From contig CAZDEW010000005.1 of the NCBI GenBank assembly GCA_964504585.1, forward strand, positions 5,082-69,081: a DNA stretch of 64,000 bases, given 5' to 3'. The DNA comes from an uncultured Pseudomonadales bacterium (GTDB lineage Bacteria > Pseudomonadota > Gammaproteobacteria > Pseudomonadales > UBA7434). A program made the position numbers and the translations under genes. The notes beneath the pieces were generated by a model, which was not told the origin of the DNA, searched no databases, and was given only the letters and a program-made list of their open reading frames with translations. Numbering within the stretch: the first letter of the stretch is position 1; each line of letters begins with the position of its first letter. Shown one piece after another: positions 4,669-57,865 of this stretch.

Positions 4669-4743
4669 GAGTTTACTTTGACTCGTCTGTAAATGTGCAC
4701 GGACGAGCCGAACTTTAACCATGCACATTAAGAGGAAATTATC

Positions 4744-5013: not shown

Positions 5014-5031
5014 GTCAGTATTTCTGGCAGT

Positions 5032-5064: not shown

Positions 5065-5176
5065 CTGTGCAGAGCTGTGTTGGCAATATTTTTATTTTGT
5101 AAGTTTGTAAGTAAGAGAGAAAGAGTCCAGCTCACGTTGTGTGAGTTGATTATTGGAAGTTATTGGAGGATTTCGA

Positions 5177-7285: not shown

Positions 7286-7303
7286 TCTTTTCAATCTGTC
7301 CAA

Positions 7304-7335
7304 AAAACCTGCTCACAAGAGCAGGTTTTTTTTTG
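7304..7335 (+). terminator. Rho-independent terminator of pnp
   Basis: AACCTGCTC-ACAA-GAGCAGGTT forms a perfect 9-bp stem and is followed by a run of 9 T. It lies 20 nt after the pnp stop. Confidence 0.85.
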
Positions 7336-7649
7336 CATGCCCACCGGCAACTCGTGCCAAAACTTTAGCAACAGGGCAACTTTCTCACAAAAATAGCGCG
7401 CGGGCGTTGTTGGGCAGCTACTAGACTTAAAGCGGAGCTTCGCGCGATGCGAATCCTGATTCTTCGGGCGGTTGACGAATTTTATCAGGTCGGGGAAAAG
7501 TACCAATTTTCGCTTAATGAACCGATCTTTTGGCCGTTAGCCAATTTTAGATAATGGTTTTTACAGTGTGCAGCCAATCGCAGAGTTTTATTAACTGAAA
7601 GACAGTCCGCTTACCGAGGGATCAACGGTGGCAGTGTACGGGTTCTAGT

Positions 7650-9626: not shown

Positions 9627-9684
9627 TCAGACCGTATAGCTTTGTCGATAATTCTAGCGATGAGCGACGACGCTTCTTGTCGCC

Positions 9685-20700: not shown

Positions 20701-21067
20701 TAACAACTTGAATGCCGTCAACATTGCCTGCGGGACACCGGGTAGCGGATCGCCGGTTGCCGGTCCGCCCCTGGCTCTTGGTTTGAATGCCTCAGATGGA
20801 AATCCTGTCGACTCGACTTTTATACCTTCACCCGCGACCTTTACTTTTTTCCCGGGAAACCGGGCCGCGTTCATTTTTGATGACCGTACCAACGCCACTT
20901 ACTTGAGTGATATGTCGTTTCGCGAGGATAGCGGCCCTGGTGCGGGCGGCCCTACCGACACCGAGGACGATGCTGATTTGGCAACGAGACAGACGGTGAT
21001 CACGGTTTTCGGATCCGCGCTGAACTGCGACCCAGAGAACTTTCCGGCTGCGTGCAGAAATCTATAG
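17729..21067 (+). CDS. Large (1112 aa) Asp-rich predicted lipoprotein of unknown function
   Basis: TTG start preceded by AGGAG 7 nt upstream. The signal peptide ends in the lipobox GLVAC followed by SSDSS. The long ORF has uniform coding character and recurring DASGN motifs. I recognise no family. Confidence 0.75.
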   Translation: MIQHALAAAIRRANRSLAALPVAKSTLAVAVAAGGLVACSSDSSNSSSFTFVPNPVVIGAPTAAGFGTFSDSYQINGLVNAGSADELVSQIAITASVAQVDASGNLLLDASGNTDNLSAIVGAPQVVADPPLGDQTGGFYWQADISVLSTGTNLMEYTATYPDNPDALSADLGGVIRGNSWMRELAIQYDPADPGGNSYLLLDQLDTGAGTGILRVDATDGTKERIDLDQTGLSDGDLDRPVDFLLDDTTAYILDGDTPRLIQVADITAGTPVLSDVTDCGEVTDELALVDPVAFAYNPAAVGSEPRFFVADRGSKEIILIDADDNCTVLPTLRATEFDDPLSDDVEDTLLVSDAKAILPYDIAYHAATETLFVTGGWLLSTSIAVEETLVDASGNPILDASGNEQTVEVARETSQPSNNFGVPSILYKIELGEELDASGNPTNLDRLHRQQVNYVSETGPSEEGGSDDTVFRVNQPGSLLIDGDRLFIVDRFAGINQNSEALAGVLVADVSDGRPRPTDMDATPMQQPEDYVFTPVSGFYTGQNIGSLDLGNPSNRDFKQLLGVESFAIRSDQNQLVTYSSALGSYLTIELAPPAVGSGCIGFVGTGADPDNANRIQCDFDGTRNLVPGGASVARIIDDDGTDEIEFTRTGRANFDPRILTSLVNDGADTLAFDRLTGEFSLNLGVLGTLFASEDNGLPSDDNSGLLFSDARALVSDGVSIYAVASFYDAEESCVPSASAACIPEQSSQLIEFSIGDRTRSIVEPDAVGSAIEFMEPVASEVVLPRVWTPDIGDLVGDDLDNRLAEISFGIDLYTADSSFAGSGTIIKTELDQFELDLAADPAEVVDNETRGTRTLLASNCPAPNLGAVTAMARVRFSSSDINDDGNLTTQGTGDFDESDGNVFETLSALLLATDNNELLAVDLLLGDCVQIASFPSPVNSLQITEQQTERDDTDGSDQGGVLRRAFRVVAMSPDDHTLFELQCEENDPRNNLNAVNIACGTPGSGSPVAGPPLALGLNASDGNPVDSTFIPSPATFTFFPGNRAAFIFDDRTNATYLSDMSFREDSGPGAGGPTDTEDDADLATRQTVITVFGSALNCDPENFPAACRNL

Positions 21068-37138: not shown

Positions 37139-38074
37139 ATGTATCTCGAGCATTTTAAGCTAACTGAAAAGCCGTTTAGTCTTATTCCGGATCCTGGTTT
37201 TCTTCACTTCTCTGACAAGCATAAAACTGCTTACAGTTTGCTTGAGTATGGTTTGTGGGAGCAGACTGGTATTACGGTGATCACTGGTGAAGTTGGCAGC
37301 GGAAAGACTACTTTGCTGCGGCATTTGCTCCAGCAGATCGATCAGAGTGAACTGTCGATCGGTATGATTAACAATACTCATGCTGCATTGGGTGACCTTA
37401 CCCAGTGGGTCGCCTCTGCGTTTGCGATTCCGCATGAGGGAAAGGACAAGGTCAAGCTATTTGAAGACATCCAGGCTCATCTCATTGAAGAGTGGGCTAA
37501 GGGCAAGCGGGCCGTGCTCATTGTTGATGAAGCACAGAATATGGATGCAGATACACTCGAAGAGCTGCGCCTGTATAACAATATCAATAGCGATGGCTAT
37601 CAGTTATTGCAGATTATCCTGGTCGGTCAGCCAGAGCTTCGCGACACCTTGCGCTTGCCTGAGCTTTCGCAGATGGCTCAGCGAGTTTCCGTTGAATACC
37701 ATATTCAGCCGTTGAGTTGGCAGGAAACGGCCAATTACATCAGGCATAGAATGTCTACCGCTGCTGCTGAAGATGCCAAGAGCCAGGCCAGTCGAACTTT
37801 TGACTCAGTCGCAATGGCCGTAATCTTCTATTTTAGTGGCGGCGTCCCTCGATTGATTAACACTCTGTGTGATTTTGCGCTGGTGCATGCCTATGCGAAA
37901 GGCGCAATGATTGTAGATCTTGAGGTTGCGCTAGAGGTTGTGCGCGGCCGAACAATCGGAGGAGTAAATCGTTACTCCAATAATCAGGAAGAACTTGATC
38001 TGGTCTGCAAGCGCGTGGACGATGCAATTGGTCTCAACCTTGGTGACCTATACAAGGAAGTGACGGCTTCATAG
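37139..38074 (+). CDS. ExeA-like AAA ATPase (XrtA/PEP-CTERM-system-associated ATPase type)
   Basis: 311-aa ORF starting MYLEHFKLTEKPFSLIPDPGFLHFS. Intact Walker A (ITGEVGSGKTTLLRHLL), Walker B (VLIVDEAQNM), and LQIILVGQPELRDTL. Confidence 0.85.
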   Translation: MYLEHFKLTEKPFSLIPDPGFLHFSDKHKTAYSLLEYGLWEQTGITVITGEVGSGKTTLLRHLLQQIDQSELSIGMINNTHAALGDLTQWVASAFAIPHEGKDKVKLFEDIQAHLIEEWAKGKRAVLIVDEAQNMDADTLEELRLYNNINSDGYQLLQIILVGQPELRDTLRLPELSQMAQRVSVEYHIQPLSWQETANYIRHRMSTAAAEDAKSQASRTFDSVAMAVIFYFSGGVPRLINTLCDFALVHAYAKGAMIVDLEVALEVVRGRTIGGVNRYSNNQEELDLVCKRVDDAIGLNLGDLYKEVTAS

Positions 38075-43543: not shown

Positions 43544-44614
43544 TCATCCTAGCCACTCCAAAAGCTGGTCGCGCATCTTTATGGCGCTTTTTTCTTGTGG
43601 GTGTGCGTGTGAACTGTCAGTGGTTTCAAGTGATAGCATCTTTTGTACTGCATCTGATAGTTGTTCTTCCGTTGGTGTATCCGAAATGGTTATCGAGTTT
43701 TCAAAAAAGCTTGATGCAAATTTCAGTTTTTGGTGTAGCGAAACTCCAACACAAGGAATGCCAAGCATCCCAGCTATATAGATTGCGTGCATTCTGGCGG
43801 TTATTACCAGCTTTGCGCCAATAAAAATTGCATAAGCATCATCTATCCGCATGCTGTTGGGGTCCCACTTCCATACTGCATACCCTGCAGCCTCGATTTC
43901 TTCTATAACAGCTGTGTCGTATTCAGGTTGAAATGAGGCCCATCTGACCTTGTGTCCGTCTTTCTCAAGTCTTTTTGCATTTGCAAGCAGCGCACTGAGG
44001 TACTTATTTTTCGCACCTCCGTATCGATATGTTCTGATAACGATCAAAATTGTGCTTTCTTGCGATCTAGCATCGATTCCCCGCAATTTGGAGCCATCAA
44101 GAAAGCACAAGTCGGTTCCGAGGGTTGCGCCTTTCGCACCTGCTTTTATCGCCAGTCTGAGTGACTCGGAATCTCTTACATAGGTGTGATCCTCTAGTCG
44201 TAGCCTAAGCGTGCAGATACGTTCTAGAGTTGAGTGATGGAAAGGACCAATGCCCAGACCAATGGACATGAATCGGGTGCCGCGAAGCTTTGCGCTCCAT
44301 ATAATGGCAGCTTCCCTCAGGAGTCGCCTTGAAATATAACGAAGTGAGGGTTTTTCGGTGTAATCGAAAAGCGTTCCACCGCCCCCGAAAATTACTCTTG
44401 TGTCTCCCCAGTATATTCGTTGCTTGGCTTGGGCAGGGTCGACTAATTCAGCTGAGGGAAACCAGCTGGCAAGGTAGCTCGCTTCCGGGTTGGCGCAACT
44501 AATTCTGATCTTCTCGTTGCGACTATGAGGCTCAATGGCTGAATAGACGATGCTGAGAAGTAGGTCATCACCAAAGTTGTGATGGCCGTAGTACCCGGCT
44601 ATGTGGATAGTCAT
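43544..44614 (-). CDS. Polysaccharide pyruvyl transferase family protein
   Basis: 356-aa ORF. The N-terminus MTIHIAGYYGHHNFGDDLLL is the characteristic PS_pyruv_trans start (WcaK/CsaB-like). The C-terminal motif ITARMHAIYIAGMLGIPCVGV is present. Confidence 0.8.
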   Translation of the reverse strand: MTIHIAGYYGHHNFGDDLLLSIVYSAIEPHSRNEKIRISCANPEASYLASWFPSAELVDPAQAKQRIYWGDTRVIFGGGGTLFDYTEKPSLRYISRRLLREAAIIWSAKLRGTRFMSIGLGIGPFHHSTLERICTLRLRLEDHTYVRDSESLRLAIKAGAKGATLGTDLCFLDGSKLRGIDARSQESTILIVIRTYRYGGAKNKYLSALLANAKRLEKDGHKVRWASFQPEYDTAVIEEIEAAGYAVWKWDPNSMRIDDAYAIFIGAKLVITARMHAIYIAGMLGIPCVGVSLHQKLKFASSFFENSITISDTPTEEQLSDAVQKMLSLETTDSSHAHPQEKSAIKMRDQLLEWLG

Positions 44615-44618: not shown

Positions 44619-46250
44619 CTAGCTCCAATGCTTTGTCGCGTCTTCGGGCATCAAAAATTGATCTTTGTTCTCGATCGCCCTGGTTACGAGTTGCATTGTC
44701 TTATAGTTTGCAAGCTCATCTATCGTACTGTGCTTGAGAGCTACAACATTAGTGTGGCTGGGTTCAATAAACACATGAAACGGAAGTTGATATCGCTCGA
44801 AAAGTAGGTAGGCGTATCTCTCGGCAAAAATACGGTTTTTCTCCTCGTCTATGCCTTCTGTGTTCCAGTCAGAGAGCAATTCGAAATACTTCTCTTTGCT
44901 ATCGATGTCGATGGTAAACCCTTTTCCTCTGAAGTGTGTTCTGGAAACTACCATACATGGGACTCCTTCCAACGGAAGCTCCATTCCAACTGTAGATGTA
45001 TGGACAATTCCAAGATCCGTTATTCCAATTATCGACCAGCTGTTTACTTTTTCGTGCGGCTCGATAATTCTTATGTGATTCGGCAGTGAGGAAAAGTGCT
45101 CACGGACAACTTGAGCAAAGGGTTGGTTGGTTCCAATGACCACCTCAGCAGGGTGCACTTTGACGATGAGTTGTAAATGGGGTTTGTCTAAAAACCATGT
45201 GATTGTTTGAATTACCCAATCGATAGGATTCGAGAACGCAATTTCTCTTTGCGCGCTGGCAGCATCCCAGAGGACATTCGTAAACAGCGTGAAGGTTGTA
45301 AGGTCTTTGTTAAGCCCTAGATTTTCAAATGTTTCATTTCTGTCGCTTTCGGCGCCAAAATTGTAAACGAGTGTATCCTTAGAGTGTGAGCGGCGGGACT
45401 CCAGGTAGTCGTCTATAAGCTTCTGTTGTGATGAGGTTAAAGGCTTCTGCTTTACTTTTTCCCATTCGTCAGATACGTCCCACCAGTCACCGCCCGTTGA
45501 CCAATTGAATTTCTCAGCGTTTGCTTTTTTCGTTTTGCTGTAGGTGACAACAGGTACGTTGTTGCTGTTCAATACTAATCGTGCGGGGCCCCACGTCGTG
45601 TATATTCCATGAGACATAATAATTCTGTCTCTAGCTTTCTTAACTAAATATGCCCCTATGGCCTCAGAAATTGCGGCGCTCTTCTTAAACATAGCTCTCC
45701 GCTCGGCTAGCCTATGGTCATTTTCATCAAGAACGCCTACGCCGAAGTGCTTCAATAGCGATGAATCAATCTCATCCGGCCAGTCTTGTCGATGATCGCC
45801 GGAATCTGAAGCGATTATTTCGGAAACGCGGGTCACCGGTATGTTGTAGCTGCTCATGAGACGGTTTCCATAGCTCCAACATTTTTCACAGATTCTCGGC
45901 CATTCACTCTCATTAGCAGCCTTTTTACTATCGCATAGTGGGAGCGCTTTATCGCAAACTATAGCTTCAACCTCGTGCCCCCTATTTTTAAGGGTTAGTG
46001 CTAGCACTACATCTACAGCCGAGTTATAAGTGTGCCCTCCAATGATCGTAAGGAAGGAGACTTTCAGCGGGTTTGCGTTTCTAGGGGTCTCTGTCGAAAC
46101 AAAATCTCTCGCTTGCGCGAGAAGCACTTCTCGCCCCAGCGTCTCGCCTAATTTTTGATATGGAATACCAAATAAATTTGCGACTCTGGCTATACCTGGA
46201 ACTAGATTTATCCGCGCTTTATATTTTAATGTTCTGAGATAGCCGCTCAT
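44619..46250 (-). CDS. Capsule-biosynthesis (KpsC/KpsS, Capsule_synth-like) putative glycosyltransferase
   Basis: 543-aa ORF. The C-terminal half has LIVKVHPAE...GITDLGIVHTSTVGMELPLEGVPCMV, resembling the HP...E nucleotide-sugar-binding core of KpsC/KpsS-type proteins. The family assignment is from memory only. It is in an operon with the cytidylyltransferase. Confidence 0.55.
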   Translation of the reverse strand: MSGYLRTLKYKARINLVPGIARVANLFGIPYQKLGETLGREVLLAQARDFVSTETPRNANPLKVSFLTIIGGHTYNSAVDVVLALTLKNRGHEVEAIVCDKALPLCDSKKAANESEWPRICEKCWSYGNRLMSSYNIPVTRVSEIIASDSGDHRQDWPDEIDSSLLKHFGVGVLDENDHRLAERRAMFKKSAAISEAIGAYLVKKARDRIIMSHGIYTTWGPARLVLNSNNVPVVTYSKTKKANAEKFNWSTGGDWWDVSDEWEKVKQKPLTSSQQKLIDDYLESRRSHSKDTLVYNFGAESDRNETFENLGLNKDLTTFTLFTNVLWDAASAQREIAFSNPIDWVIQTITWFLDKPHLQLIVKVHPAEVVIGTNQPFAQVVREHFSSLPNHIRIIEPHEKVNSWSIIGITDLGIVHTSTVGMELPLEGVPCMVVSRTHFRGKGFTIDIDSKEKYFELLSDWNTEGIDEEKNRIFAERYAYLLFERYQLPFHVFIEPSHTNVVALKHSTIDELANYKTMQLVTRAIENKDQFLMPEDATKHWS

Positions 46251-46262: not shown

Positions 46263-46928
46263 TTACAGTGTTTGTGTTAGCTTTTGGACTGACTCTAGAC
46301 AACCTATGCTTTCGAGTTCTGGATAGTTTGCCTCTAGTGATTTCATGGTCAGCAGGTCTTCGAGCGTATCTAGAGTTATTCTCTTCTGATGTTCAATGCC
46401 GTAAAAATTGCTTGGAAGTGCTAACCTCTTGTATACATCGGAGTTTCGAATATCCCAGGTCACGTGTTCTTTGGCTTCGGGTGAATGATCTCCGGCATAG
46501 CACTCTCGCAAGGCATCGCATCGAACGATTTCGCCGCTAAAATGAGAGAGTGGCGCTATATAAGCATAGTCCGCATTTTCTGCTTTGGCTGCCTCAAAAA
46601 GCCCGTCAATAACAGCCGGCTGTGCAAGGTAATTGTCGCAGGTGATGCGCAGACAATACTCCCCATCGTACCCCTCAAGGGCCTGACAAAATCGGCTCAA
46701 AACGTCATCTTCACTGCCGACCAGGAACTCGGCGCCGGTATTTGCCACATAGCTCTGCATCGCCAGATTCTCCGGCCTGTCGCCGGTAGCCAGAACGACC
46801 CGGTCGACATGTTCGGCGGATTGAGCAATCGAAATCGCTCTCTCCACAATATGCTGACCAAAGAAACTAAAGAGACCTTTGCCGGGGAGTCTCGTCGAGC
46901 CGAGACGAGCCTGAAGTATCGCAATCAT
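46263..46928 (-). CDS. Cytidylyltransferase (SpsF/acylneuraminate cytidylyltransferase family)
   Basis: 221-aa ORF. MIAILQARLGSTRLPGKGL is the hallmark N-terminal motif of CMP-sugar synthetases of the SpsF/NeuA/PseF family. It is transcribed divergently from the nonulosonic-acid synthase operon. Confidence 0.8.
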   Translation of the reverse strand: MIAILQARLGSTRLPGKGLFSFFGQHIVERAISIAQSAEHVDRVVLATGDRPENLAMQSYVANTGAEFLVGSEDDVLSRFCQALEGYDGEYCLRITCDNYLAQPAVIDGLFEAAKAENADYAYIAPLSHFSGEIVRCDALRECYAGDHSPEAKEHVTWDIRNSDVYKRLALPSNFYGIEHQKRITLDTLEDLLTMKSLEANYPELESIGCLESVQKLTQTL

Positions 46929-47168
46929 GGCGGTGTTATAACGTTATTTTGTGTAAAGCTATGAAAAAGGGGATTCCACCGGCTATGCGCCGGCCCGAAG
47001 GTGGGTATCATACTTTTTTTGCACACGTAATCAACAATTTAGCAACGGGCAGATGCAGGTCTGCTCGGTTGAGTCGCGCAACAGCTGCTAGACTTAGTTG
47101 TTCACCGGGGAGCTCTGATCGCTGGTCTCCGGGGCTGAATAGAAAATCAAGAAAGGTAAAGAAATCAA

Positions 47169-48188
47169 ATGACAGATAATTTCACTCCCGAGTCCATCCT
47201 GGTGACCGGTGGTACTGGTTCTTTTGGCAAGGCATTCGTACAAACCGTGCTCGACTCGATGCCCTCCGTCAAACGGCTCGTTGTATTTTCGCGTGACGAA
47301 CTTAAACAGTTTGAGATGTCCCAGCAGTTCCCGCGCAGTAAGTACCCGCAAATGCGCTACTTTATTGGTGATGTTCGGGATGGTGCCCGGCTGACACGAG
47401 CCTGTGAGGGAATCGACACCATCATCCACGCGGCTGCGCTTAAACAAGTGCCGGCGGCCGAAGATAATCCGATGGAGTGTATTCTCACGAATGTCCATGG
47501 TGCCCAGAACGTCATCGATGCGGCCATGAATAGCGGTGTGAAGCGGGTGGTTGCCTTGTCTACCGATAAAGCCGCCGCGCCTATCAACCTTTATGGCGCA
47601 ACAAAGCTTTGCTCGGATAAGCTCTTCGTCGCAGCCAATAACATCAAGGGCGCCCGCGATTTGCGCTTTTCAGTTGTCAGATATGGCAACGTTATGGGGT
47701 CACGGGGCTCTGTCATCCCGTTTTTCCTGAATCAGCGCGCGTCTGGTACGCTGCCCATAACCGATGCAGGCATGACGCGATTCAATATTTCGCTCAAGGA
47801 AGGCGTCGATATGGTTTTACACGCACTGGAATCGGCGCTCGGTGGCGAGATCTTCGTGCCCAAAATCCCATCCTACAAAATTCTCGACGTCGCCGAGGCG
47901 GTTGGGCCCGAGTGTAAAACAGAGCTCGTTGGGATCAGACCGGGTGAAAAATTGCACGAGGAAATGATCACTGCTTCCGATTCGTTTATGACAGTCGATG
48001 TCGGCAAATATTACGTGATACTTCCGCAGACCCATCGCTTTAGCGCCCAGGATTACTGCGAGGACGTTGGTGCGAAAATGGTTGAGGAGGGTTTTACCTA
48101 TAACTCAGGCACCAATACTGAGTGGCTATCAGTAGAAGAGCTTAGAACGCTAATAAAACAGCATGTCGATCCAAACTTCGCCGCCTAG
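47169..48188 (+). CDS. pseB: UDP-N-acetylglucosamine 4,6-dehydratase (PseB/FlaA1 type)
   Basis: 339-aa ORF with ILVTGGTGSFGKAFV, IIHAAALKQVPAAEDNPMECILTNVHGAQNV, LSTDKAAAPINLYGATKLCSDKLFVAAN and RYGNVMGSRGSVIPFF, a strong match to PseB-type inverting dehydratases. Confidence 0.88.
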   Translation: MTDNFTPESILVTGGTGSFGKAFVQTVLDSMPSVKRLVVFSRDELKQFEMSQQFPRSKYPQMRYFIGDVRDGARLTRACEGIDTIIHAAALKQVPAAEDNPMECILTNVHGAQNVIDAAMNSGVKRVVALSTDKAAAPINLYGATKLCSDKLFVAANNIKGARDLRFSVVRYGNVMGSRGSVIPFFLNQRASGTLPITDAGMTRFNISLKEGVDMVLHALESALGGEIFVPKIPSYKILDVAEAVGPECKTELVGIRPGEKLHEEMITASDSFMTVDVGKYYVILPQTHRFSAQDYCEDVGAKMVEEGFTYNSGTNTEWLSVEELRTLIKQHVDPNFAA

Positions 48189-49047
48189 CGAGCGCAGTGT
48201 TTTTATCGCCGGTGGGCGTTCCTGGATTGGCTATCACCTGACAAACTGCCTTCAGGCGCTTCACTGGCAGGTATCAGCAAGCAGTAGTCAGCCCAGTGCG
48301 GCGGGTTTTTCCAAGCTTGCCACTGTACAAGACGTTGATGCGCTACTATCTCGCGCCAGCCCTGCCGTTATTGTCAATCTGTTGATTGGAATTGACGAGG
48401 AGCACTGGAAGATACACCAGGCTTTTTTGCGCTGGGCACAGGAGAATAAGGCGCACTATATATACGCTTCTTCTGCATTGGCGCTGGATGCTTACCGTGG
48501 TGAGCCTCTGCACGAAGAGATGCCGGCAAACGCTGTTTCGGAGTACGGCAGGTTCAAAGCGCGCTGCGAAGGCTCCCTGCACGAGGCGAGATCGCTGGAC
48601 GCATCGATTTTGCGATTTGCTTCAATTCACGGCTGGAGCCCTTACAAGGACACGCGCACCGAGGTTTTGCTGCGCAAAGTGGCTGCGGGTGAAACAATCG
48701 AGGTTAGTCCGGGTGTCATACAGAATCGCTTGACCGACACGATTTTGTGTTCGGCCATTGCGAATATCGTGGATCGACGCGAGCTGGGTACATTCCATTT
48801 GGGCCCGGTAGACAGCAGCGAAGAAATCGAATTTCTCCGCTCTCTGGCGACTGCTTTCGGGCATAGTGATAGTGGTATAACCGCGGGAGAGCAGCGTGAC
48901 GTCAATCTGGTCGTTATACCCGGCGCTGCTGCCGCTCGAATTGATCTTGAAACAATAACTGAAAAGCAATGCCTTGCTCGTCTGTGTGAGCGCAGCGAAC
49001 TATCGCAACATAAACATACAACTGCAACATCATTGGAAAACTCATGA
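48163..49047 (+). CDS. Extended-SDR sugar-nucleotide reductase (RmlD-substrate-binding-like)
   Basis: 294-aa ORF overlapping the pseB-like stop by 26 nt and the next start by 4 nt. It has a Rossmann-like VFIAGGRSWIGYHL, Ser in YASSALAL, and the catalytic YGRFK (YxxxK). It is not an aminotransferase fold. Confidence 0.7.
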   Translation: MSIQTSPPSERSVFIAGGRSWIGYHLTNCLQALHWQVSASSSQPSAAGFSKLATVQDVDALLSRASPAVIVNLLIGIDEEHWKIHQAFLRWAQENKAHYIYASSALALDAYRGEPLHEEMPANAVSEYGRFKARCEGSLHEARSLDASILRFASIHGWSPYKDTRTEVLLRKVAAGETIEVSPGVIQNRLTDTILCSAIANIVDRRELGTFHLGPVDSSEEIEFLRSLATAFGHSDSGITAGEQRDVNLVVIPGAAAARIDLETITEKQCLARLCERSELSQHKHTTATSLENS

Positions 49048-50219
49048 CTATCGAAATTGCCGGAAAGAAAGTAGGACCCAGCGAGCCCTGTTACTTCATT
49101 GCTGATATCGCTGCTAACCACTGTGGTGAACTCAGCATTGCCAAGGATCTGATCCATGCATGCGCCGAATCCGGCGTCGATGCCGTCAAGATGCAGAATT
49201 TCACGGCGGCGACAATCGTTTCCGACTACGGCTTTAAGAACTTGTCCGGTGTAGAAACGCACCAGTCTAAATGGAAGCAGTCGGTTTTCGACTCCTATGA
49301 CGCCGCCTCGATTCCGCTGAGCTGGACCGAGGAACTCAAGTCGCTTTGCGATAAGCTGGGGCTGGCATACTTTACTTCGCCCTATTCGCTTGAGCTCGTA
49401 CATGCGGTAGCACCGTCAGTGAGTGCCTTCAAATTAGGCTCAGGAGATATTACCTGGTTAGAAGAAATCAAGGCGATGGGAAGCTATGACTTGCCACTTC
49501 TTATCGCTACTGGCGCGTCTACGATGGCGGAAGTGGAGTCGGCCATGGATGCAGCGCTTTCGGTTTCCAATCAAACTCTCCTGATGCAGTGCAATACCGA
49601 GTACACCGCAAGTATCGAGGATACCCAGGAGCAGCGTTACAAGCGTTTTGAGCACATCAATTTGCAGGTGCTTGCGACATACGCCAAGCGATGGCCCGGT
49701 ATTCCGCTCGGGCTTTCCGATCATACTCACGGCTCGATGACCGTGCTTGGTGCAGTCGGGCTTTTCGATTGCTGTGCCGTTGAGAAACACTTTACCTTCG
49801 ATAATTCGAAAGAGGGACAGGATCATTCCTTTTCGATGACACCGGCGACCTGGCTGGAAATGAAGAATGCGACAGAAGCGCTACGCAGTGAGTTGGCATC
49901 TGAAAAGCCAGAGACTTTTGAGGAGCGCCTGGATATTGTTAAGCGTTTTGTCGACGATCCAACCGCACTGGAGCTAGCGATTGGTGATGGCGTTAAAAAA
50001 CTTGAAGCGAACGAGGTTAATACAGTTGTTGTGCAACGGCGTGCGGTACGCGCTACCCGATCGATCAAAGCGGGTGAAGTCCTCAGCAAGGAAGATCTGT
50101 TTCCTCTGCGCCCCTGTCCAAGAGATGCAGTGACCCCGGCGAATATTGATGAGCTGGTGGGTAAGACACTGCAGCGTGATATTACCGAAGGCGAGCACTT
50201 CGTGCAGGATGATCTCTAG
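49044..50219 (+). CDS. Nonulosonic acid synthase (NeuB/PseI/SpsE family) with C-terminal SAF domain
   Basis: 391-aa ORF with EPCYFIADIAANHCGELSIAKDLIHACAESGVDAVKMQNF, FKLGSGDITWLEEI and GLSDHTHG. The C-terminal SAF-like segment is AVRATRSIKAGEVLSKEDLFPLRP. Confidence 0.88.
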   Translation: MTIEIAGKKVGPSEPCYFIADIAANHCGELSIAKDLIHACAESGVDAVKMQNFTAATIVSDYGFKNLSGVETHQSKWKQSVFDSYDAASIPLSWTEELKSLCDKLGLAYFTSPYSLELVHAVAPSVSAFKLGSGDITWLEEIKAMGSYDLPLLIATGASTMAEVESAMDAALSVSNQTLLMQCNTEYTASIEDTQEQRYKRFEHINLQVLATYAKRWPGIPLGLSDHTHGSMTVLGAVGLFDCCAVEKHFTFDNSKEGQDHSFSMTPATWLEMKNATEALRSELASEKPETFEERLDIVKRFVDDPTALELAIGDGVKKLEANEVNTVVVQRRAVRATRSIKAGEVLSKEDLFPLRPCPRDAVTPANIDELVGKTLQRDITEGEHFVQDDL

Positions 50220-50270
50220 TGTCGTTCTGAATAAAAACAGTCTTACTAATCGCGCCGGTGTCACAAAACC

Positions 50271-50747
50271 ATGTCTAACGACTTATTTGAAAATCCCTAC
50301 ACGGACCAGACCCGAAGGGAGTTTTGGGAGATCTGCGTGAAGCGCGATCTCGAGGCATTTCTCGCGCAGGACTGGTCGATGACTGCCTGCGACTTTTGTA
50401 CGGACGATTTTTTTGGTCTTGATGCGCAGAACCAGACGAGCCCTGCGCAGTGGCGACCCAAATACGCGACGCTCGAGGCTTATCGTCAGGACTTTGATCT
50501 ACAGGCCGCGGAGTTTGCGACTAAGGAGTTTGCAGACGACCCCCGAGAGGCTATGTATCGGGCATTGACGATCACAGACCCTCAGATCGAGGGTGAGCGC
50601 GCTCTGGTAACCAAGATATTCAAAGGCCAGCTTAAAGAGAAGAACGGCGACATCACGCTGCTTGACTGGCAAAGCGTATTTCAGTTCAAAAGGAAGGGCG
50701 GGCGCTGGTTAATCACGGGGTTCGTCGGCTACATGCCCAACGATTAA
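50271..50747 (+). CDS. Hypothetical protein, possibly NTF2/SnoaL-like fold
   Basis: 158-aa ORF inside the nonulosonic-acid operon with good coding character. I recognise no catalytic motif. The size and the terminal beta-rich segment (GGRWLITGFVGYMP) suggest an NTF2-like fold, but this is a weak guess. Confidence 0.6.
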   Translation: MSNDLFENPYTDQTRREFWEICVKRDLEAFLAQDWSMTACDFCTDDFFGLDAQNQTSPAQWRPKYATLEAYRQDFDLQAAEFATKEFADDPREAMYRALTITDPQIEGERALVTKIFKGQLKEKNGDITLLDWQSVFQFKRKGGRWLITGFVGYMPND

Positions 50748-50763
50748 ACGAGAGCTGTTCCCG

Positions 50764-51804
50764 GTGACTCCTACAGTAGCGATCAGAGCCGATGGCAGTC
50801 AAGGCATTGGTATGGGTCACATCATGCGCTGTATTGGGCTGGCGCAGGAGTTTCGTGCCAGAGCGTATCAGGTGGTTTTTATTTCAGCTGTGCGTTCCGC
50901 ACAGATCGAAGCGTTGGTTACAAGCTTTGGCATGGACTACGTCGCATCTGATCTTGAAATCGGCAGTGCCGACGATCTAGCCTTTACGCTTGCCACCTGT
51001 CGCGATCGAGAAGCGTGTTTTCTAGTTGTCGACGGCTATAGGTTTGGTGCTGACTGGTTGTCTGGTTTACGGAGCGAGGGGCTCAGTGCCATGCTCTGGA
51101 CAGACTATTGTCAGGCGCAGCGCTTGCCAGTTGACCTGATTCTCGATCAGACCCCGGCAGACAACTTTGTACTGTACGAGGCCGCTTCAGCTGCGAACAC
51201 CTTGATTCTGAATGGCCTTGAATACGCGGTGCTGCGCGATGAGTTTTTGCGACACCCCGGCATCAGGCGGCTGCGCGAGAGTGTGGAGCGAGTGCTCGTC
51301 ACCTTTGGCGGGGCAGATCCTATCGGAGCTACGGTCAAAGTCACTGAAATACTGCTGCAGACTGCCTGCGACGTTCACTTTGATATCGTGGTGGGGCCTG
51401 CAAATACACGAGTCGACGAAGTCAGAGTGCTTGTCGAAAACAAGCCAAACTTTAGCTTGCATGTTGCCACCAAGGAGATGGCGCGACTGGTGTCCGAAGC
51501 AGATCTTGCGATATCAGCTGCCGGAACAAGCCTTTGGGAGTTTGCTTATTCGGGATTACCGACGATCGCCACCGTGATTGCGGATAACCAGATTCTGCTG
51601 GCTGATTCTTTAGAGCGGCTGCAGTGCAGTGTTAACCTGGGGCGGATTGAGGCTGTGCGGGCTGAAACACTGGAAGCGGAGCTCGCTCGTTTGCTTGCGG
51701 AAACTGATCGCTTGCGCACTTTTAGCCAGCGGATGATGCGTCTTGTCGATGGTGAGGGTCGGGCACGAGTGGTTGATAGCGTCGAGGCGATGCTTCGCGA
51801 ATAG
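50764..51804 (+). CDS. pseG: PseG/SpsG-type UDP-sugar hydrolase
   Basis: 346-aa ORF with a GTG start. VAIRADGSQGIGMGHIMRCIGLAQEF is the characteristic PseG N-terminus. The protein looks like a GT-B fold of the GT28 type, with C-terminal LAISAAGTSLWEFAYSGLP. Confidence 0.8.
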   Translation: MTPTVAIRADGSQGIGMGHIMRCIGLAQEFRARAYQVVFISAVRSAQIEALVTSFGMDYVASDLEIGSADDLAFTLATCRDREACFLVVDGYRFGADWLSGLRSEGLSAMLWTDYCQAQRLPVDLILDQTPADNFVLYEAASAANTLILNGLEYAVLRDEFLRHPGIRRLRESVERVLVTFGGADPIGATVKVTEILLQTACDVHFDIVVGPANTRVDEVRVLVENKPNFSLHVATKEMARLVSEADLAISAAGTSLWEFAYSGLPTIATVIADNQILLADSLERLQCSVNLGRIEAVRAETLEAELARLLAETDRLRTFSQRMMRLVDGEGRARVVDSVEAMLRE

Positions 51805-53069: not shown

Positions 53070-53591
53070 ATGAGCAGAAATAAACGCGATCTCTGGAACG
53101 TTCTGGTGGGCCGCCTGCCGTCCCGGCGTATTAGAAAATACTTCGCCCGCAAAACCTTTGCGGAATTTGCGGAAGGCGCGTTTATTGGTCTGCGTGTGAA
53201 CGTTTATGACCCTGCCAATATTTCGATTGGTTCGCGTTCGGTGGTCAATGCGGAATGTGTGCTTGATGGTCGTGGCAGCCCGCTTGTGATCGGCCACGAT
53301 GTCGATATTGGGACGCAATCGCATATCTGGACGCTCGAGCATGATTTTAATGACGATGATCACGCAGTCGAATCGGGCGCAGTCAGCATTGAGAATCACG
53401 CATGGGTCGCCTCAAGAGTTACGATCCTTCCTGGCGTGACAATCGGGCGTGGTGCCGTGGTCGCCGCAGGATCAGTGGTGACTCGCGATGTGCCACCCAT
53501 GGCAATTGTCGCGGGTACGCCGGCGAGACAAATCGCGGTGCGGGAAAATAAGCTGCAGTATCAATTAAACTTTAACCCCCGGTTTAGATAG
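53070..53591 (+). CDS. Hexapeptide-repeat (LbH) acetyltransferase, WcaF/LacA-like O-acetyltransferase
   Basis: 173-aa ORF with repeated [LIV]-G-x4 turns ([78 protein letters not shown]). Confidence 0.85.
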
Positions 53592-53600: not shown

Positions 53601-54656
53601 ATGAACGTTGGCTACTTTCCGTTTTCCCCGGGCGGCAACCCTTACCAGAACCTGTTCGCAGGTGCGCTTGAGTCTGCCGGTTTAACCGTAACCCGAATAC
53701 CACCCAAAAAGTGGTTTCCAATTCGTTCAGCGGTTAGCGTTGGCACTGATCTGCTGCAGTTCGATTGGCCGCACGACTGGTATAACGGCAGAAACGGGGT
53801 TAGTAGAACGATCAAGTCTTTGATGTATAGAGATGGTTTGCGCCTCTTGAAGGATCGACCTCTGGTGTGGACAGCGCACAACCTCTATACCCATGGCGCT
53901 GAGGATCTCGACTATGATAAGCGCATGATGCAGCGGCTCATCGATCGATGCGATGGAATCATAGTGCTATCCGAAAGCGCTGAGAAACAGATGCGAGAAA
54001 CCTACCGTCTCTCGGCGGGAACAGAGGTTTCCGTCATTCGTCATGGGCATTACATGGATGTCTATCCCAGTGGCGTCACGCGTGCACAGGCCAGAGAGCA
54101 GTTGGCTATCAGCGCCGATGAGAGAGTGGCTTTGTTTGTGGGTCGAATCTTGCCTTACAAGGGCCTTGAGACATTGATTGATGCTTTCAGTGAAGCCGGG
54201 GTTTCAGGTTCAACGCTAATGATTGCGGGTTCTTGCGCCGATGAATCCTATCGCAAGGTGCTCACCGATTTGGCAGCGTCACGCTCCAGTGAAAACGTAA
54301 GCATTCAGATCGATGCCCGGTTTATCCCGGATGATCAGTTACAAACTTATTATGCGGCGTCAGATGTTGTCGCGCTGCCATTCAAAAATATTCTGAATTC
54401 CGGGTCCTTGCTGCTTGCCATGAGTTTTGGTAAGTGCGTGGTTGCGCCAGATCGCGGATCCATTAGGGAGGTCGCGTTTCCTGATGGGTGGTTTCCTTAC
54501 ACGCAGGATGCTGAGCTCGGCGCCGCTTTGAGGCAAGCGCTTTTGTCTGATGATCTCGTTGAGCGGGAGGCCAGGGTGGTCGATTTCACGAGTACCAATT
54601 ACAGTTGGCAGAAGATAGGTCAACAGGCAAACGCGCTTTACGATTCAATATCCTAG
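53601..54656 (+). CDS. Glycosyltransferase family 4-like
   Basis: 351-aa ORF with VALFVGRILPYKGLETLIDAF and the C-terminal donor-binding segment ASDVVALPFKNILNSGSLLLAMSFGKCVVAPDRGSIREV. Confidence 0.75.
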   Translation: MNVGYFPFSPGGNPYQNLFAGALESAGLTVTRIPPKKWFPIRSAVSVGTDLLQFDWPHDWYNGRNGVSRTIKSLMYRDGLRLLKDRPLVWTAHNLYTHGAEDLDYDKRMMQRLIDRCDGIIVLSESAEKQMRETYRLSAGTEVSVIRHGHYMDVYPSGVTRAQAREQLAISADERVALFVGRILPYKGLETLIDAFSEAGVSGSTLMIAGSCADESYRKVLTDLAASRSSENVSIQIDARFIPDDQLQTYYAASDVVALPFKNILNSGSLLLAMSFGKCVVAPDRGSIREVAFPDGWFPYTQDAELGAALRQALLSDDLVEREARVVDFTSTNYSWQKIGQQANALYDSIS

Positions 54657-54720: not shown

Positions 54721-57150
54721 TTACTGGGCGGATAGTATTTCGATCTCGCCGTCTTCACTAATGATCGCACCTCGTTTGCCCAAGCGATATTCCCTACCAA
54801 GATAAATCAATGTCAATCCTTCAAAGGGGTTGTCAATCTCACGCCATAGGCGGGTGTTCTGATAAGAGGATCCCTTATCAATTTTTTTTGCCACCGCTGC
54901 GTAGTAGTTGCCTGGTGAGCCAGTACGAGGGCGAGGGGATGCGATCTGGTTTTTGCTCCACGTTGCTTTCTCGAGCGTCTTTCCGGTATAGCTTTGTGCA
55001 TCGCCCAGCTTTATTCGCACACCGGCCTGCAATGGAGAGTCGATTCGCAGCGTCCATCTCAGTTCATGCCACGCAGGCGAATAAATCAGTTGGCCATCGC
55101 GAGCGACGTTGTCAAACTCAATGGGACCTTTAATCCATACGTATTTTGGTGGCGGATAAGGGCCGTGACCCAGACGAATAGCGGCTTTAGCGTCTCCGGA
55201 TGCACTATGCATAATATCTTCGGCACCGGTAATGCGTGTGGCCTCGATGATAGTTGCAGCATCAATTGGATCGTCGCGCGTGTCGTCATGCTTGCCGTCT
55301 TTATCGATAAAGCCTGTTAACACGAGACCAAAGGGCAGTTCGCTGCCCGCACCCAGAGTCATGCGGCTAGATAATCGCGCCCAGGGGTTTCCGCGTATAG
55401 CGATTGCCTCGTGGTTAATGGTCTGGGTAATTCGCGCGCTGGGTACCTCGGGGTAGTGCGTGGGCGGTATTAGCGGGGGTGCTGGCATTAGGTGTAGCAG
55501 ACTATTTTGCATCGTCGCTTCGACAGGTCGATCGATTTCAATGTTGCCAGCATCGTCCTTTCCCCATTCGATAGCGAGCGGTGTGTGCACTCTTTCTTGT
55601 TTGAAAGGGCCTTTAACGTTGATCTTGAGCCGGATCGCTTTGTCATCGGGGTGACTGGAAAAGCCGTCGATCTTGGGCACGCAGCACTGTCTTGCATCCC
55701 AGCTGTGTTGCCCATCTATCGAGTATCCGATCGACGAGTAAGTCATTTCAAACGGGCTGTCTGCGTCCAGCCCGGAAAGATCTCTGACAAGAAAACCCTG
55801 CAAGCCGGCGGCGCCATACTCAAAGGTCACGCGCCCTGAGGCTTTCGAGAGTACGCCAAGGTCAAGCCCGCGATTGGCCAGGCTACTGCAGACGCCGTCA
55901 AGCTGTGCCCGTGCCGCGCCGGTTCCCGGGAAGTTGGTGCCCTGACTATAGGGATCGGAAAATACCACATCGAGTAGTGTTAGCGAGCGTATGGGGTTAG
56001 CTTCTCCATGCGCTCTTATTGTCACGCCCGAATCATAGAACTTCCCGGAGAGCGTAATATCGAGCAACTCTCGACCGGCCTTTTCGCGGGCCCAGCGTTT
56101 CTGTAGTTCCCTGGATGAATTTTTTGCAAGTGGCGCGGATTGAATAAAAAGGCCGTCGCCCCAGGTATGATTGAAGTCCGCATGGATTTGAACTTCGTGA
56201 GATTCTTCAGGCGCCTGCCTGGCTTTAGGTACGTCAATGCTGATCAAACCAGAGCCGGAAAACCACCGTATGCGTGGGTAGAAGCTTTCGTGGGCCCTGT
56301 TAATTGCGCCCGCTTGATAATACGGGTTCTTGCAGTTGCCCGCCTGTACGCGCCAGCGCGATCCCTGGGTCCATCCCCATGGCTTGCTGGCGTCAAAGCT
56401 CTCGTCTCTGAAGGTGACCCGATGTTGCGAGCCTGATTCGCCGACTCGTAAAACCTGTGGGGGTGCCGGGAAGTGCCACATGCGATGGTGGGACACGGGA
56501 CCCTCCCCATTGCCGACAGTCGCAGGGTGAGACTTATCGCTGTCTGCGACATTGTAAATCATGATGTCTGCGAGCGGCGATTTCATGACCAGCGTGTGCA
56601 TATGGCCCCAATCGATAAACGACATACGTGCATCGACAGCGGGTGGTCGCCAGAACAACTTGTCGCCCCAGTTTTGTTTTAAGCGATTTAGAAAAGGCGC
56701 TAAATCCTGGCCTTGCTCAAAAGGGTACCAGGCAAATTCTATTGGCTGCGAGTTGGTATTGAAGTCCACGCCCGGTGCTCCATCCCGCACCCAGGCCCAG
56801 CCAGACGCTTTCTCCCCACGGACCCTGACCAGTACCAGACCGTCGGACTGAAGATGTTGCGCGATGCCTTTTTGGGCGATAGCGCGGCCGCCAGCGATAT
56901 TGACGATCTGCCCTTCGTTGTCGGGTACGACATTGGCGAGGTCCACAAGATAGGGTTGATCAGAGGCCAGCGCGTATGAGCTCTGCGCGAAAATGAGGAC
57001 AGCGATAGCAAAAGATTTGGCAAATACTGTTGCAGCGGTAAGGTGCCCATCATCGAAGTTAAATTGGGTAATCCCCCTGCTAAGTTTTGTAGCGCACCGG
57101 GCGGTTGCCCGAAAATTGCAATAGAATTTACGCGGCCGGGAGGGGAGCAT
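54721..57150 (-). CDS. Large secreted protein of unknown function (candidate EPS-modifying or depolymerising enzyme)
   Basis: The ORF is open from 57237, and the first ATG-type start giving an N-terminal basic region is at 57150. A hydrophobic h-region and an AxA site (FAIAVLIFAQSSYALA/SD) lie about 60 aa in, so the true start is uncertain. About 770 aa of mature protein follow, with no family I recognise. It is the only gene on the minus strand in this part of the EPS locus. Confidence 0.65.
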   Translation of the reverse strand: MLPSRPRKFYCNFRATARCATKLSRGITQFNFDDGHLTAATVFAKSFAIAVLIFAQSSYALASDQPYLVDLANVVPDNEGQIVNIAGGRAIAQKGIAQHLQSDGLVLVRVRGEKASGWAWVRDGAPGVDFNTNSQPIEFAWYPFEQGQDLAPFLNRLKQNWGDKLFWRPPAVDARMSFIDWGHMHTLVMKSPLADIMIYNVADSDKSHPATVGNGEGPVSHHRMWHFPAPPQVLRVGESGSQHRVTFRDESFDASKPWGWTQGSRWRVQAGNCKNPYYQAGAINRAHESFYPRIRWFSGSGLISIDVPKARQAPEESHEVQIHADFNHTWGDGLFIQSAPLAKNSSRELQKRWAREKAGRELLDITLSGKFYDSGVTIRAHGEANPIRSLTLLDVVFSDPYSQGTNFPGTGAARAQLDGVCSSLANRGLDLGVLSKASGRVTFEYGAAGLQGFLVRDLSGLDADSPFEMTYSSIGYSIDGQHSWDARQCCVPKIDGFSSHPDDKAIRLKINVKGPFKQERVHTPLAIEWGKDDAGNIEIDRPVEATMQNSLLHLMPAPPLIPPTHYPEVPSARITQTINHEAIAIRGNPWARLSSRMTLGAGSELPFGLVLTGFIDKDGKHDDTRDDPIDAATIIEATRITGAEDIMHSASGDAKAAIRLGHGPYPPPKYVWIKGPIEFDNVARDGQLIYSPAWHELRWTLRIDSPLQAGVRIKLGDAQSYTGKTLEKATWSKNQIASPRPRTGSPGNYYAAVAKKIDKGSSYQNTRLWREIDNPFEGLTLIYLGREYRLGKRGAIISEDGEIEILSAQ

Positions 57151-57865
57151 GCGAGCGCGCCCTGCCCATACCGCAACTCGCGGTGACGCAGATCTGGGTA
57201 AACTGGCGTGGATTTGTCTGGCACTTGGTAAAGGCATGAGTCAGAGCTGTTGTCTTAAATAAATATAGGGCAGGCCTGAGTCTCGGCACGCTTAGCGGCG
57301 GCTTTGTTGAGGCCCCGTTGGCATTGTATTCCATGAAGTCGCGCTAACGGGAATCTTTAGAGCGCAGGAGACCTTGAGCAGCAATGGGTTCGAACCCTAT
57401 GGCTCCTCGAACGGGCGCTGCGTAATGTCTTCAATGTTCGCTGATAGTCAGGCTGATTTTGGGTGTTTTAACGCTAAAAATTTGCAGTTCATCTGTATTA
57501 CAACCTATTTCCGGTACAGGGTTTTGAACTACGCTTAAACTGTGTCCATGCGCCGAGATCTGGCACAGGCAAGACCGGGTGCGGCAGGTTTCGGTGAACG
57601 GATGAGAGTTTTTTGCACGTGGCAGAACACAAAGCCGCCGTGATTGCCAATTGTTCCGAGCTGCGAGAGCCGAAGGGCGACCGGACTCTTTTTCGAGTTG
57701 ACAGGCGCGAATCATCCGATGCTCACCATAGAAGCCAATCGCAAACCAATGGCGAACCAATGAAAGAAGATTACAGTCCCGAGAACCGCCAGTTGCGCAC
57801 CTGCCAGAATCACCCCCGAACTCGTGGCGCTACCATTTTGCGCAGGGAGTAAAGTGGTCGCGAGT

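Follow-up and report, generated by a model that had tools for sequence, protein, structure and literature searches.

A candidate reductive, aminotransferase-free cassette for a fusaminic-acid-type nonulosonic acid in an uncultured Pseudomonadales bacterium

We describe here a six-gene cassette from an uncultured Pseudomonadales bacterium, in which a predicted reductase of the short-chain dehydrogenase/reductase (SDR) superfamily stands where clusters for pseudaminic acid (Pse) have their aminotransferase gene. The cassette occupies positions 46263 to 51804 of the stretch of DNA that was analysed (contig CAZDEW010000005.1, positions 5,082 to 69,081, forward strand), called below the window, at its full length of 64,000 nucleotides. 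The reading that we favour, and hold to be probable though far from secured, is that the cassette encodes a reductive branch of the nonulosonic acid (NulO) pathways of the pseudaminic-acid type, one without an aminotransferase, leading to a CMP-5-acetamido-3,5,9-trideoxy-nonulosonic acid of the fusaminic-acid type, a scheme whose stereochemistry and enzyme activities we infer. It is supported by the translational coupling of pseB, the SDR gene and neuB, the position of the SDR gene at the place of pseC, the lack of a DegT-type aminotransferase gene in the cassette, synteny across phyla, and a distinct synthase.

Nonulosonic acids, among them the sialic, legionaminic (Leg) and pseudaminic acids, cap bacterial surfaces and govern immune recognition, phage binding and the properties of biofilm matrices. 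In the canonical Pse pathway, PseB is a 4,6-dehydratase, PseC a pyridoxal phosphate-dependent aminotransferase, PseH an N-acetyltransferase and PseG a UDP hydrolase, after which PseI performs the condensation with phosphoenolpyruvate (PEP) and PseF the activation with CMP. All bacterial routes to 9-deoxy NulOs that are, to our knowledge, established go through a 4-amino sugar.

Composition of the cassette

The genes of the cassette, with the family models that match their products, are the following.

46263-46928, minus strand: SpsF-type cytidylyltransferase, 221 aa; PF02348 (CTP_transf_3), E 1.7e-19
47169-48188, plus strand: PseB, 339 aa; TIGR03589, 519.8 bits (cutoff 407.75)
48163-49047, plus strand: RmlD-like extended SDR, 294 aa; PF04321 (RmlD_sub_bind), 37.8 bits (cutoff 27)
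49044-50219, plus strand: NeuB synthase with SAF domain, 391 aa; PF03102, 178 bits, and PF08666, 44 bits
50271-50747, plus strand: U158, a 158-aa protein; no Pfam or NCBIfam match, even at E 10
50764-51804, plus strand: PseG-type UDP-sugar hydrolase, 346 aa; TIGR03590, 209.6 bits (cutoff 153.55)

The pseB and SDR genes overlap by 26 nt (48163-48188), and the SDR gene and neuB by 4 nt (49044-49047). These open reading frames (ORFs), with their coordinates, their overlaps and the YGATK and YGRFK motifs of PseB and the SDR, had been reported in an original prediction made from the letters of the window, and match the ORF list exactly. The family calls made there for PseB, PseG, the NeuB synthase with its SAF domain and the SDR were checked with the models listed above and stand, with PseB and PseG both above cutoff; the divergent SpsF-type cytidylyltransferase was likewise recovered with PF02348.

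PseB carries the motif TDK...YGATK and belongs by family to the inverting UDP-GlcNAc 4,6-dehydratases, which is the activity predicted for it. It is 68-71% identical to the pseB products of canonical clusters in which pseC comes directly after pseB. The SDR gene stands exactly in this place, in agreement with the original proposal that a reductase occupies the aminotransferase slot. At the other end of the operon, the PseG-type hydrolase, 32% identical to the PseG of one canonical cluster, contains GMGHIMR at its N-terminus, with a His that we take to be the PseG catalytic base, and would release a free 6-deoxy-L-HexNAc. The cytidylyltransferase matches the PseF and KdsB models of NCBIfam weakly, far below their cutoffs (28 bits with the PseF model TIGR03584, cutoff 205.7), and probably makes the CMP-nonulosonic acid.

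With the Pse pathway of Helicobacter and Campylobacter the cassette has in common PseB, a hydrolase of the PseG type, a PEP synthase of the NeuB family, a CMP-activating enzyme and a second gene placed directly after pseB. In contrast to that pathway it is devoid of PseC, no PseH was found for it in the searches described below, and an RmlD-like SDR is present instead; its synthase and cytidylyltransferase fail the PseI and PseF models, it has an extra gene for an NTF2-like protein, and its predicted product bears a hydroxyl rather than an N-acetyl group at position 7. The sps legionaminic pathway of Bacillus subtilis (SpsM, C, D, G, E, F) is similar in being UDP-linked and in using a PseB-like SpsM, a PseG-like SpsG, a NeuB-like SpsE and an SpsF-type cytidylyltransferase (PMC7439481), and SpsE is the joint best sequence match of the window synthase in the PDB (98.6 bits). 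The sps pathway differs by its aminotransferase SpsC and acetyltransferase SpsD, neither of which is in the cassette.

A different way to account for this set of genes would be two unrelated pathways, PseB and the SDR producing a UDP-6-deoxy-L-HexNAc of the N-acetyl-L-quinovosamine (L-QuiNAc), N-acetyl-L-rhamnosamine (L-RhaNAc) or N-acetyl-L-fucosamine (L-FucNAc) type, while NeuB, the 'PseG' and the cytidylyltransferase produce N-acetylneuraminic acid (Neu5Ac) or deaminoneuraminic acid (Kdn). We consider this highly improbable. PseB is homologous to FnlA, WbvB and CapE, scoring 248.9 bits with the FnlA model TIGR04130, RmlD-like reductases partner enzymes of that kind (WbvR is RmlD-like), and many other sugar-nucleotide genes are found in the locus. 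However, the FnlA score is far below its cutoff of 730, whereas PseB is well above the cutoff of its own model; moreover the cassette has no UDP-GlcNAc 2-epimerase of the NeuC, FnlC or WbvD type, which would leave NeuB without a source of aldose, and all six genes travel together across phyla. The UDP-L-QuiNAc and UDP-L-FucNAc pathways (WbvB/WbvR/WbvD; FnlA/FnlB/FnlC; CapE/F/G) do resemble the cassette by a PseB-homologous 4,6-dehydratase followed by a 4-ketoreductase acting on a UDP-4-keto-6-deoxy-HexNAc. They differ from it in that the cassette dehydratase is of the PseB type, with the Tyr of YGATK, that a 2-epimerase is missing, and that the cassette product is predicted to be hydrolysed and extended to a nine-carbon acid instead of being used as a UDP-sugar. 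An L-FucNAc/L-QuiNAc pathway of the FnlA/WbvB type, taken as a candidate in its own right, was rejected on the score of 248.9 against 730 bits and on the lack of an Epimerase_2 gene in any cassette locus.

Conservation of the cassette in three phyla

Apart from the window, 14 independent loci share this gene order; they come from Gammaproteobacteria, Verrucomicrobiota and Bacteroidota, some of them from cultured isolates. With such a recurrence, in at least three phyla, chance does not account for the arrangement. When species-representative genomes were scanned with the SDR, 7 loci emerged, all in metagenome-assembled genomes (MAGs): Pseudomonadales, Arenicellaceae, an uncultured gammaproteobacterium, Verrucomicrobiota, Opitutus, Flavobacteriia and one unclassified bacterium. 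In the readable loci of the SDR and U158 scans the order is pseB, SDR, neuB, U158 and pseG, with the cytidylyltransferase gene divergently upstream or directly downstream; a cytidylyltransferase is present in every complete cassette locus. Identities to the window copies were as follows.

PseB: 55-87%
NeuB: 58-80%
Cytidylyltransferase: 29-63%
U158: 37-59%
SDR: 33-50%
PseG: 22-53%

Four loci were picked by means of NeuB alone, for their long contigs or cultured origin (Mucilaginibacter sp. MD40, GCA_002288635.1; Fulvivirga kasyanovii, GCA_039523515.1; Flavobacteriaceae bacterium F08102; and a 705-kb contig from JGI). The SDR gene lies directly upstream of neuB in all four, and no DegT gene was found within 8-10 kb in any of them. 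Proteins of the cassette go in the databases under the names 'N-acetylneuraminate synthase', 'sialic acid synthase SpsE' and 'dTDP-4-dehydrorhamnose reductase'.

One locus, referred to as L099 (the related loci bear L numbers), shows a variant order at 4402-10162: pseB, cytidylyltransferase, SDR, neuB and a pseG-like gene. Within 8 kb it has neither an NTF2-like gene nor a gene for the 543-aa KpsS-like protein presented below, and it is flanked by two sulfotransferase genes and an MBOAT gene.

Search for an aminotransferase and an N-acetyltransferase

No DegT (PF01041) protein came up when the large ORFs of the window were scanned with Pfam. We also searched by tblastn with four DegT probes, WecE and ArnB of E. 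coli K-12 and the PseC proteins of Aureibacter tunicatorum pAT1 and Synechococcus sp. NIES-970 plasmid 1, canonical pse clusters having been located by searching plasmids with the window PseB. As a positive control, the four probes detected PseC in both canonical clusters at 1e-40 to 1e-112. Neither the window nor ten related loci gave a match at E ≤ 1, and four additional loci (L096, L097, L099 and L100) gave none at E ≤ 1e-3, the flanks examined in the relatives being of 8-10 kb or up to the contig end. The original prediction, which had noted that no DegT/PseC-type aminotransferase is encoded between 38 and 64 kb, can thus be extended to the whole window with both methods.

For N-acetyltransferases of the GNAT type, the scanned ORFs gave no Pfam match and RffC/PseH-type probes were silent; this negative is weaker, as GNATs are short and diverse and the scan covered only part of the small ORFs. 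A single acetyltransferase came to light, a WcaF-like enzyme with a left-handed beta helix (LbH), encoded at 53070-53591, that is 1.27 kb downstream of PseG, where the original prediction had placed it (1.3 kb). U158 was considered as a hidden GNAT or PseH and rejected, its predicted fold being NTF2-like and not that of a GNAT.

A divergent synthase clade

The NeuB synthase with its SAF domain scores under the cutoffs of the NeuB model (197 against 400 bits) and of the PseI model TIGR03586 (184 against 340.25), fails the LegI-type cutoffs too, and is 27-28% identical to canonical PseI. Aligned with SpsE, PseI and NeuB of Neisseria meningitidis, it keeps the motifs NHxG, KxQ, SDHT and EKHFT. 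More than 120 clusters (at 90% identity) make up its clade, with members that are at least 58% identical and measure about 390 aa. NeuB, PseI and SpsE have a Glu in the motif A-E-x-x-x-N-H-x-G, a residue that we take to be Glu25 of N. meningitidis NeuB; the 120 clade members listed all have Asp in its place, within D[ILV]A[SA]NHxG. The clade is also marked by some 40 additional residues inserted between barrel and SAF domain. A divergent synthase would be expected if the aldose substrate differs, and the Glu to Asp change throughout the clade, the insert and the low identity to PseI fit a different aldose. The synthase is predicted to perform the PEP condensation.

These properties bear on the possibility that the cassette belongs to an ordinary di-amino Pse or Leg pathway, with PseC and the N-acetyltransferase encoded elsewhere and the SDR serving, for instance, to supply a second 6-deoxy-HexNAc to the same polymer. 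DegT enzymes are sometimes shared between pathways. PseB and PseG pass equivalog cutoffs of the Pse pathway, the span examined amounts to 64 kb here and to 10 kb of flank at most in the relatives, and N-acetyl-6-deoxy-L-altrosamine (L-6dAltNAc) is itself a polymer residue in Fusobacterium nucleatum 25586, so that a pair of PseB and reductase can stand alone. All the same we judge such a pathway improbable. Fifteen loci of three phyla are without DegT, and in these the SDR gene is always there, either flanked by pseB and neuB or immediately upstream of neuB; the cassette genes are translationally coupled; and a synthase that diverges from PseI to this extent and fails the cutoffs of the PseI, NeuB and LegI types is hard to square with a 2,4-diacetamido substrate.

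A discrete family of putative RmlD-like reductases

The SDR carries the motif YGRFK, and in an alignment of 26 members S103/S104, Y128 and K132 are invariant. The N-terminal motif in this alignment is G-x-R-S-W-I-G, that is, GxxSxxG in place of GxxGxxG. With the dTDP-4-dehydrorhamnose reductase model TIGR01214 the protein scores 39.1 bits for a cutoff of 224, below the equivalog level. The best fold matches of its AlphaFold2 (AF2) model (pLDDT 93.6) in the PDB are dTDP-4-dehydrorhamnose reductases (5u9c with a TM-score of 0.78, 1vl0, 3sc6, 8g22 and others), at 14-18% identity to the solved RmlDs. The model points to an extended SDR that is intact and falls with RmlD within the superfamily.

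An exhaustive search with a hidden Markov model of the family, run against 1.84 billion representatives at E ≤ 1e-30, gave 77 matches, of which about 68 scored at least 178 bits; scores then dropped to other RmlD-like proteins of about 270 aa, and the nearest outgroup sequences also lean RmlD-like. By this profile the SDRs form a discrete clade of about 77 representatives. A word-index protein search understated this family as well as that of U158, with 26 SDR clusters (33-47% identity) and 6 U158 relatives; scans at the DNA level brought out many more copies of U158. The SDR protein had no match in a search against plasmids. We propose that it acts as a UDP-4-keto-6-deoxy-L-AltNAc 4-reductase.

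U158, a putative NTF2-like protein

The 158-aa protein had been left without explanation in the original prediction; a predicted fold and the loci of its relatives are added here. Besides having no Pfam or NCBIfam match, U158 has no sequence match in the PDB. Its AF2 model (pLDDT 88.8) retrieves with Foldseek entries of the CaMKII-hub, SgcJ, SnoaL, NTF2 and ketosteroid isomerase (KSI)-like types with a probability of 1.0, yet with TM-scores of just 0.45-0.59 and no family match at the sequence level; the predicted fold is an NTF2-like alpha+beta cone. Nine polar residues are invariant (E20, R25, D26, D34, D41, D51, Y71, Q78 and K115), which suggests that U158 is an enzyme. Of the 13 related loci that extend over this position, 12 encode it, the exception being L099; it is thus common in the cassettes but dispensable.

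A metagenome scan was made with the U158 alignment, and the best 80 loci (L014-L093) were considered. In 79 of them the relative of U158 lies outside NulO cassettes, in an N-acetylhexosamine catabolic locus, and the remaining one is the cassette of L092. The 79 non-cassette proteins are 38-48% identical to that of the window, similar to most cassette copies. In their locus (for example L017:5801-13278), a GH20 beta-N-acetylhexosaminidase is encoded together with a classical SDR and a divergent RpiR/SIS regulator; after the NTF2-like gene come genes for an M81/MlrC-like hydrolase, for a protein of about 365 aa and for a sugar ABC transporter. It looks like an undescribed amino-sugar catabolic operon. 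A free N-acetylhexosamine would be the element common to both settings, and for this reason we place U158 after PseG, on the released sugar. There it might, speculatively, catalyse the exchange of anomers, ring opening or an epimerisation through enolisation.

It may be asked whether the SDR acts at the level of the UDP-sugar at all. It could catalyse a later reduction or epimerisation, for example on a 7-keto NulO or its CMP derivative, like the SDR pairs that convert Leg or Pse into acinetaminic acid (Aci), 8-epilegionaminic acid (8eLeg) or 8-epipseudaminic acid (8ePse), or U158 could reset a stereocentre, so that a different and possibly new NulO isomer would be made. The fold of the SDR matches epimerases (Mth373, WbmH and GalE-type) nearly as well as RmlD, and the simple scheme assigns no step to the conserved NTF2-like protein. 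Enzymes that epimerise NulOs after their synthesis are known (PMC12053666), and fusaminic acid is of the gluco, not the Pse-type manno, configuration (PMC13014188). We nevertheless find a later step unlikely. The SDR gene follows pseB with overlapping codons, those proteins closest to the SDR in sequence all tend towards RmlD, and if neither 4-reduction nor transamination took place, PseG and NeuB would face a reactive 4-keto sugar; L099, furthermore, keeps the rest of the cassette and is devoid of the NTF2-like gene. The pathway would still be new if the SDR did act late.

Proposed pathway and product

According to the reductive scheme that we favour, PseB would convert UDP-GlcNAc into UDP-2-acetamido-2,6-dideoxy-beta-L-arabino-hexos-4-ulose (UDP-4-keto-6-deoxy-L-AltNAc). 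The SDR, with NAD(P)H, would then reduce the 4-keto group, giving UDP-6-deoxy-L-AltNAc or its C4 epimer UDP-6-deoxy-L-IdoNAc, a step that would replace both the transamination by PseC and the N-acetylation by PseH. UDP would be removed by the PseG-type hydrolase, and U158 may, speculatively, act on the free N-acetyl-6-deoxyhexose, by anomer interconversion, ring opening or epimerisation next to the carbonyl. Condensation with PEP by the synthase would yield a 5-acetamido-3,5,9-trideoxy-non-2-ulosonic acid (C11H19NO8, 293.111 Da), to be converted into its CMP derivative by the SpsF-type cytidylyltransferase. The 543-aa KpsS/KpsC-like protein could finally put the NulO into the polysaccharide, where O-acetylation, pyruvylation or sulfation by the products of neighbouring genes may follow.

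The C4 of the hexose may have the altro or the ido configuration, and the C4 of the NulO may likewise be of either configuration. From our own Fischer derivation, an altro reduction followed by a Pse-like condensation would lead to the L-glycero-L-manno 7-hydroxy analogue of Pse. Fusaminic acid, tentatively assigned as L-glycero-L-gluco, would by the same derivation be the C4 epimer of that product, and would need an attack from the opposite face or a later change.

The O-antigen of F. nucleatum ATCC 25586 contains both L-6dAltNAc and fusaminic acid, a 5-amino-3,5,9-trideoxy-nonulosonic acid (PMC13014188; Vinogradov et al. 2017, cited at second hand). As the two sugars are present in one O-antigen, the predicted pair of intermediate and product has a counterpart in nature. 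Fusaminic acid resembles the predicted product by its 5-amino, 7-hydroxy, 9-deoxy skeleton, and by the L-6dAltNAc of the same polymer (PMC13014188); it differs by carrying a 5-acetimidoyl group, and no gene of the cassette would account for such a group. None of the papers found in the full text of PMC and bioRxiv describes the biosynthetic genes of fusaminic acid. Searches of the same full text, which does not extend to subscription-only papers, brought up no description of the cassette or of any route to a 7-hydroxy-9-deoxy NulO, in line with the original prediction, which knew of no established route to the mono-amino class. The proposal made there of a mono-amino NulO is itself strengthened by the discrete SDR clade, the coupling to neuB, the loci free of DegT, and the occurrence of fusaminic acid with L-6dAltNAc in F. 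nucleatum.

Several points weigh against this scheme. The SDR is far under the RmlD equivalog cutoff (39 against 224 bits), and UDP-sugar epimerases and dehydratases come only slightly behind RmlD among its fold matches, so that C4 ketoreduction of a UDP-sugar is assigned to it by context. In its Rossmann motif, Ser usually replaces the second Gly (GxxSxxG). The PseG copies of the Bacteroidota cassettes are just 22-28% identical, with no recorded Pfam hit, and the conserved U158 could change the product. A PseC/PseH pair could be encoded elsewhere in the genomes, the coverage being that given above (64 kb here, at most 10 kb of flank in the relatives). Finally, the readings are drawn from sequences and models.

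A candidate transferase and other neighbouring genes

Five genes around the cassette deserve attention.

43544-44614, minus strand: polysaccharide pyruvyl transferase, a putative tailoring enzyme, PF04230, E 9.5e-26; adjoins the 543-aa gene
44619-46250, minus strand: 543-aa KpsS/KpsC-like protein, Capsule_synth-like; candidate glycosyltransferase
53070-53591, plus strand: WcaF-like LbH acetyltransferase, NF007797, 86.7 bits, below cutoff; Hexapep
53601-54656, plus strand: GT4 glycosyltransferase, PF00534 and PF13692
60379-61221, plus strand: Sulfotransfer_2 protein of the exopolysaccharide (EPS) locus

The 543-aa protein, a putative KpsS-like transferase that the original prediction had missed, is encoded beside the cassette in eight loci (L002, L005, L007, L009, L092, L096, L097 and L100). 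The window copy has a non-significant match to PF05159 (E 0.058, 13.3 bits, cutoff 20). PF05159 (Capsule_synth) is matched by 5 of 6 members of the family, the best E value being 1.5e-5, with all scores under the Pfam gathering threshold, and a weak precomputed PF05159 hit is recorded for the Mucilaginibacter homologue (L096). Against the PDB, the family profile ranks KpsC (6mgd) first, though with a non-significant E of 0.5, and the dipeptide H366-P367 is invariant. KpsS1, a KpsS-like enzyme, is a proven retaining Pse5Ac7Ac transferase that defines GT118 (PMC12887879). It is through these weak matches and its invariant HP that the family may be compared with KpsS1 and with the beta-Kdo transferases KpsC and KpsS (GT107), enzymes that use CMP-ulosonic acid donors; no member of the family reaches the Pfam threshold. 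Since the 543-aa protein is co-conserved with the cassette and KpsC/PF05159-like, and since KpsS and KpsC use CMP-Kdo and KpsS1 is a Pse transferase, we propose, with low to moderate confidence, that it is a transferase using the CMP-activated NulO.

Homologues of the pyruvyl transferase lie beside the cassette in L002 (38% identity) and L100 (29%), and both this gene and that of a MurJ-like flippase recur beside the cassette in some loci. The LbH acetyltransferase, which possibly O-acetylates the polymer or the nonulosonic acid, has homologues of 44-68% identity near the cassette in L001, L002, L005, L009, L096, L097 and L100, and the GT4 enzyme has homologues of 26-51% identity in L001, L002, L005, L009, L096 and L097. 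From the presence of the Sulfotransfer_2 and pyruvyl transferase genes in the same locus, the polymer is probably sulfated and pyruvylated. Sulfotransferase genes flank the cassette in L002, L097 and L099 as well.

Genomic setting

From Pfam scans of the large ORFs, the cassette is surrounded by a Wzx/Wzy-type EPS locus that spans about 32-64 kb of the window. This locus encodes Poly_export, Wzz-like and AAA_22 proteins, two UDP-sugar dehydrogenases, an epimerase, a MurJ-like flippase, a Wzy_C protein, the pyruvyl transferase, the sulfotransferase and several GT4 enzymes. The genes in the left part of the window, which are infB, truB, pnp, pcnB and that of a sigma-54 activator, together with the rpsO leader, show the window to be chromosomal and probably gammaproteobacterial. 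The cassette is also found on a metagenome scaffold of the European Nucleotide Archive (ENA), with proteins 99-100% identical. Three other features of the window are listed below.

4679-4800, plus strand: ribosomal protein S15 leader, RF00114, 55.4 bits; between truB and pnp
37139-38074, plus strand: AAA_22 ATPase, 49% identical to the copy at L001:8077-8961
46929-47168: divergent intergenic region of 240 bp between the cytidylyltransferase gene and pseB; presumed promoters

In a scan of the operon for promoters and terminators, the number of sites was not above that in shuffled sequence; the 240-bp intergenic region has a single weak sigma-70-like site, on the minus strand at 47034-47007, again a count not above the shuffled expectation. 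The S15 leader is a mark of the conserved infB-truB-rpsO-pnp housekeeping block. The AAA_22 ATPase gene lies immediately upstream of the sugar genes both in the EPS locus of the window and in L001, a locus of a gammaproteobacterial MAG, and Wzz-like and CbiA-like homologues are likewise common to the two. In the middle of the EPS locus, on the opposite strand, an 838-aa ORF (54721-57237, minus strand) has no Pfam or NCBIfam match and no homologue in any related locus; a 1112-aa ORF (17729-21067, plus strand) has no match to a Pfam family.

Discussion

The analysis brings forward a family of putative RmlD-like reductases and a clade of synthases, together with an NTF2-like enzyme not characterised so far and a protein that may be the transferase. 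A bolder view, which we put forward tentatively and about which we have more doubt than confidence, is that the cassette represents a fourth bacterial NulO branch beside Neu/Kdn, Leg and Pse. This branch would be reductive and devoted to 5-amino-7-hydroxy-9-deoxy sugars, with its own synthase clade and reductase family and with a dedicated NTF2-like enzyme that sets a stereocentre or the anomeric state. It would be the missing route to sugars of the fusaminic-acid type, and perhaps to isomers as yet unseen, in the exopolysaccharides of environmental Bacteroidota, Verrucomicrobiota and Gammaproteobacteria.

The cassette offers a testable hypothesis of six genes, and it is present in bacteria that are culturable and non-pathogenic. 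If the hypothesis is true, the prediction of surface sugars from genomes would gain a new class, from genes now annotated as 'N-acetylneuraminate synthase' and 'dTDP-4-dehydrorhamnose reductase'. It would also provide enzymes for the chemoenzymatic synthesis of 7-hydroxy analogues of Pse and Leg, and a basis on which to seek the pathway in F. nucleatum.

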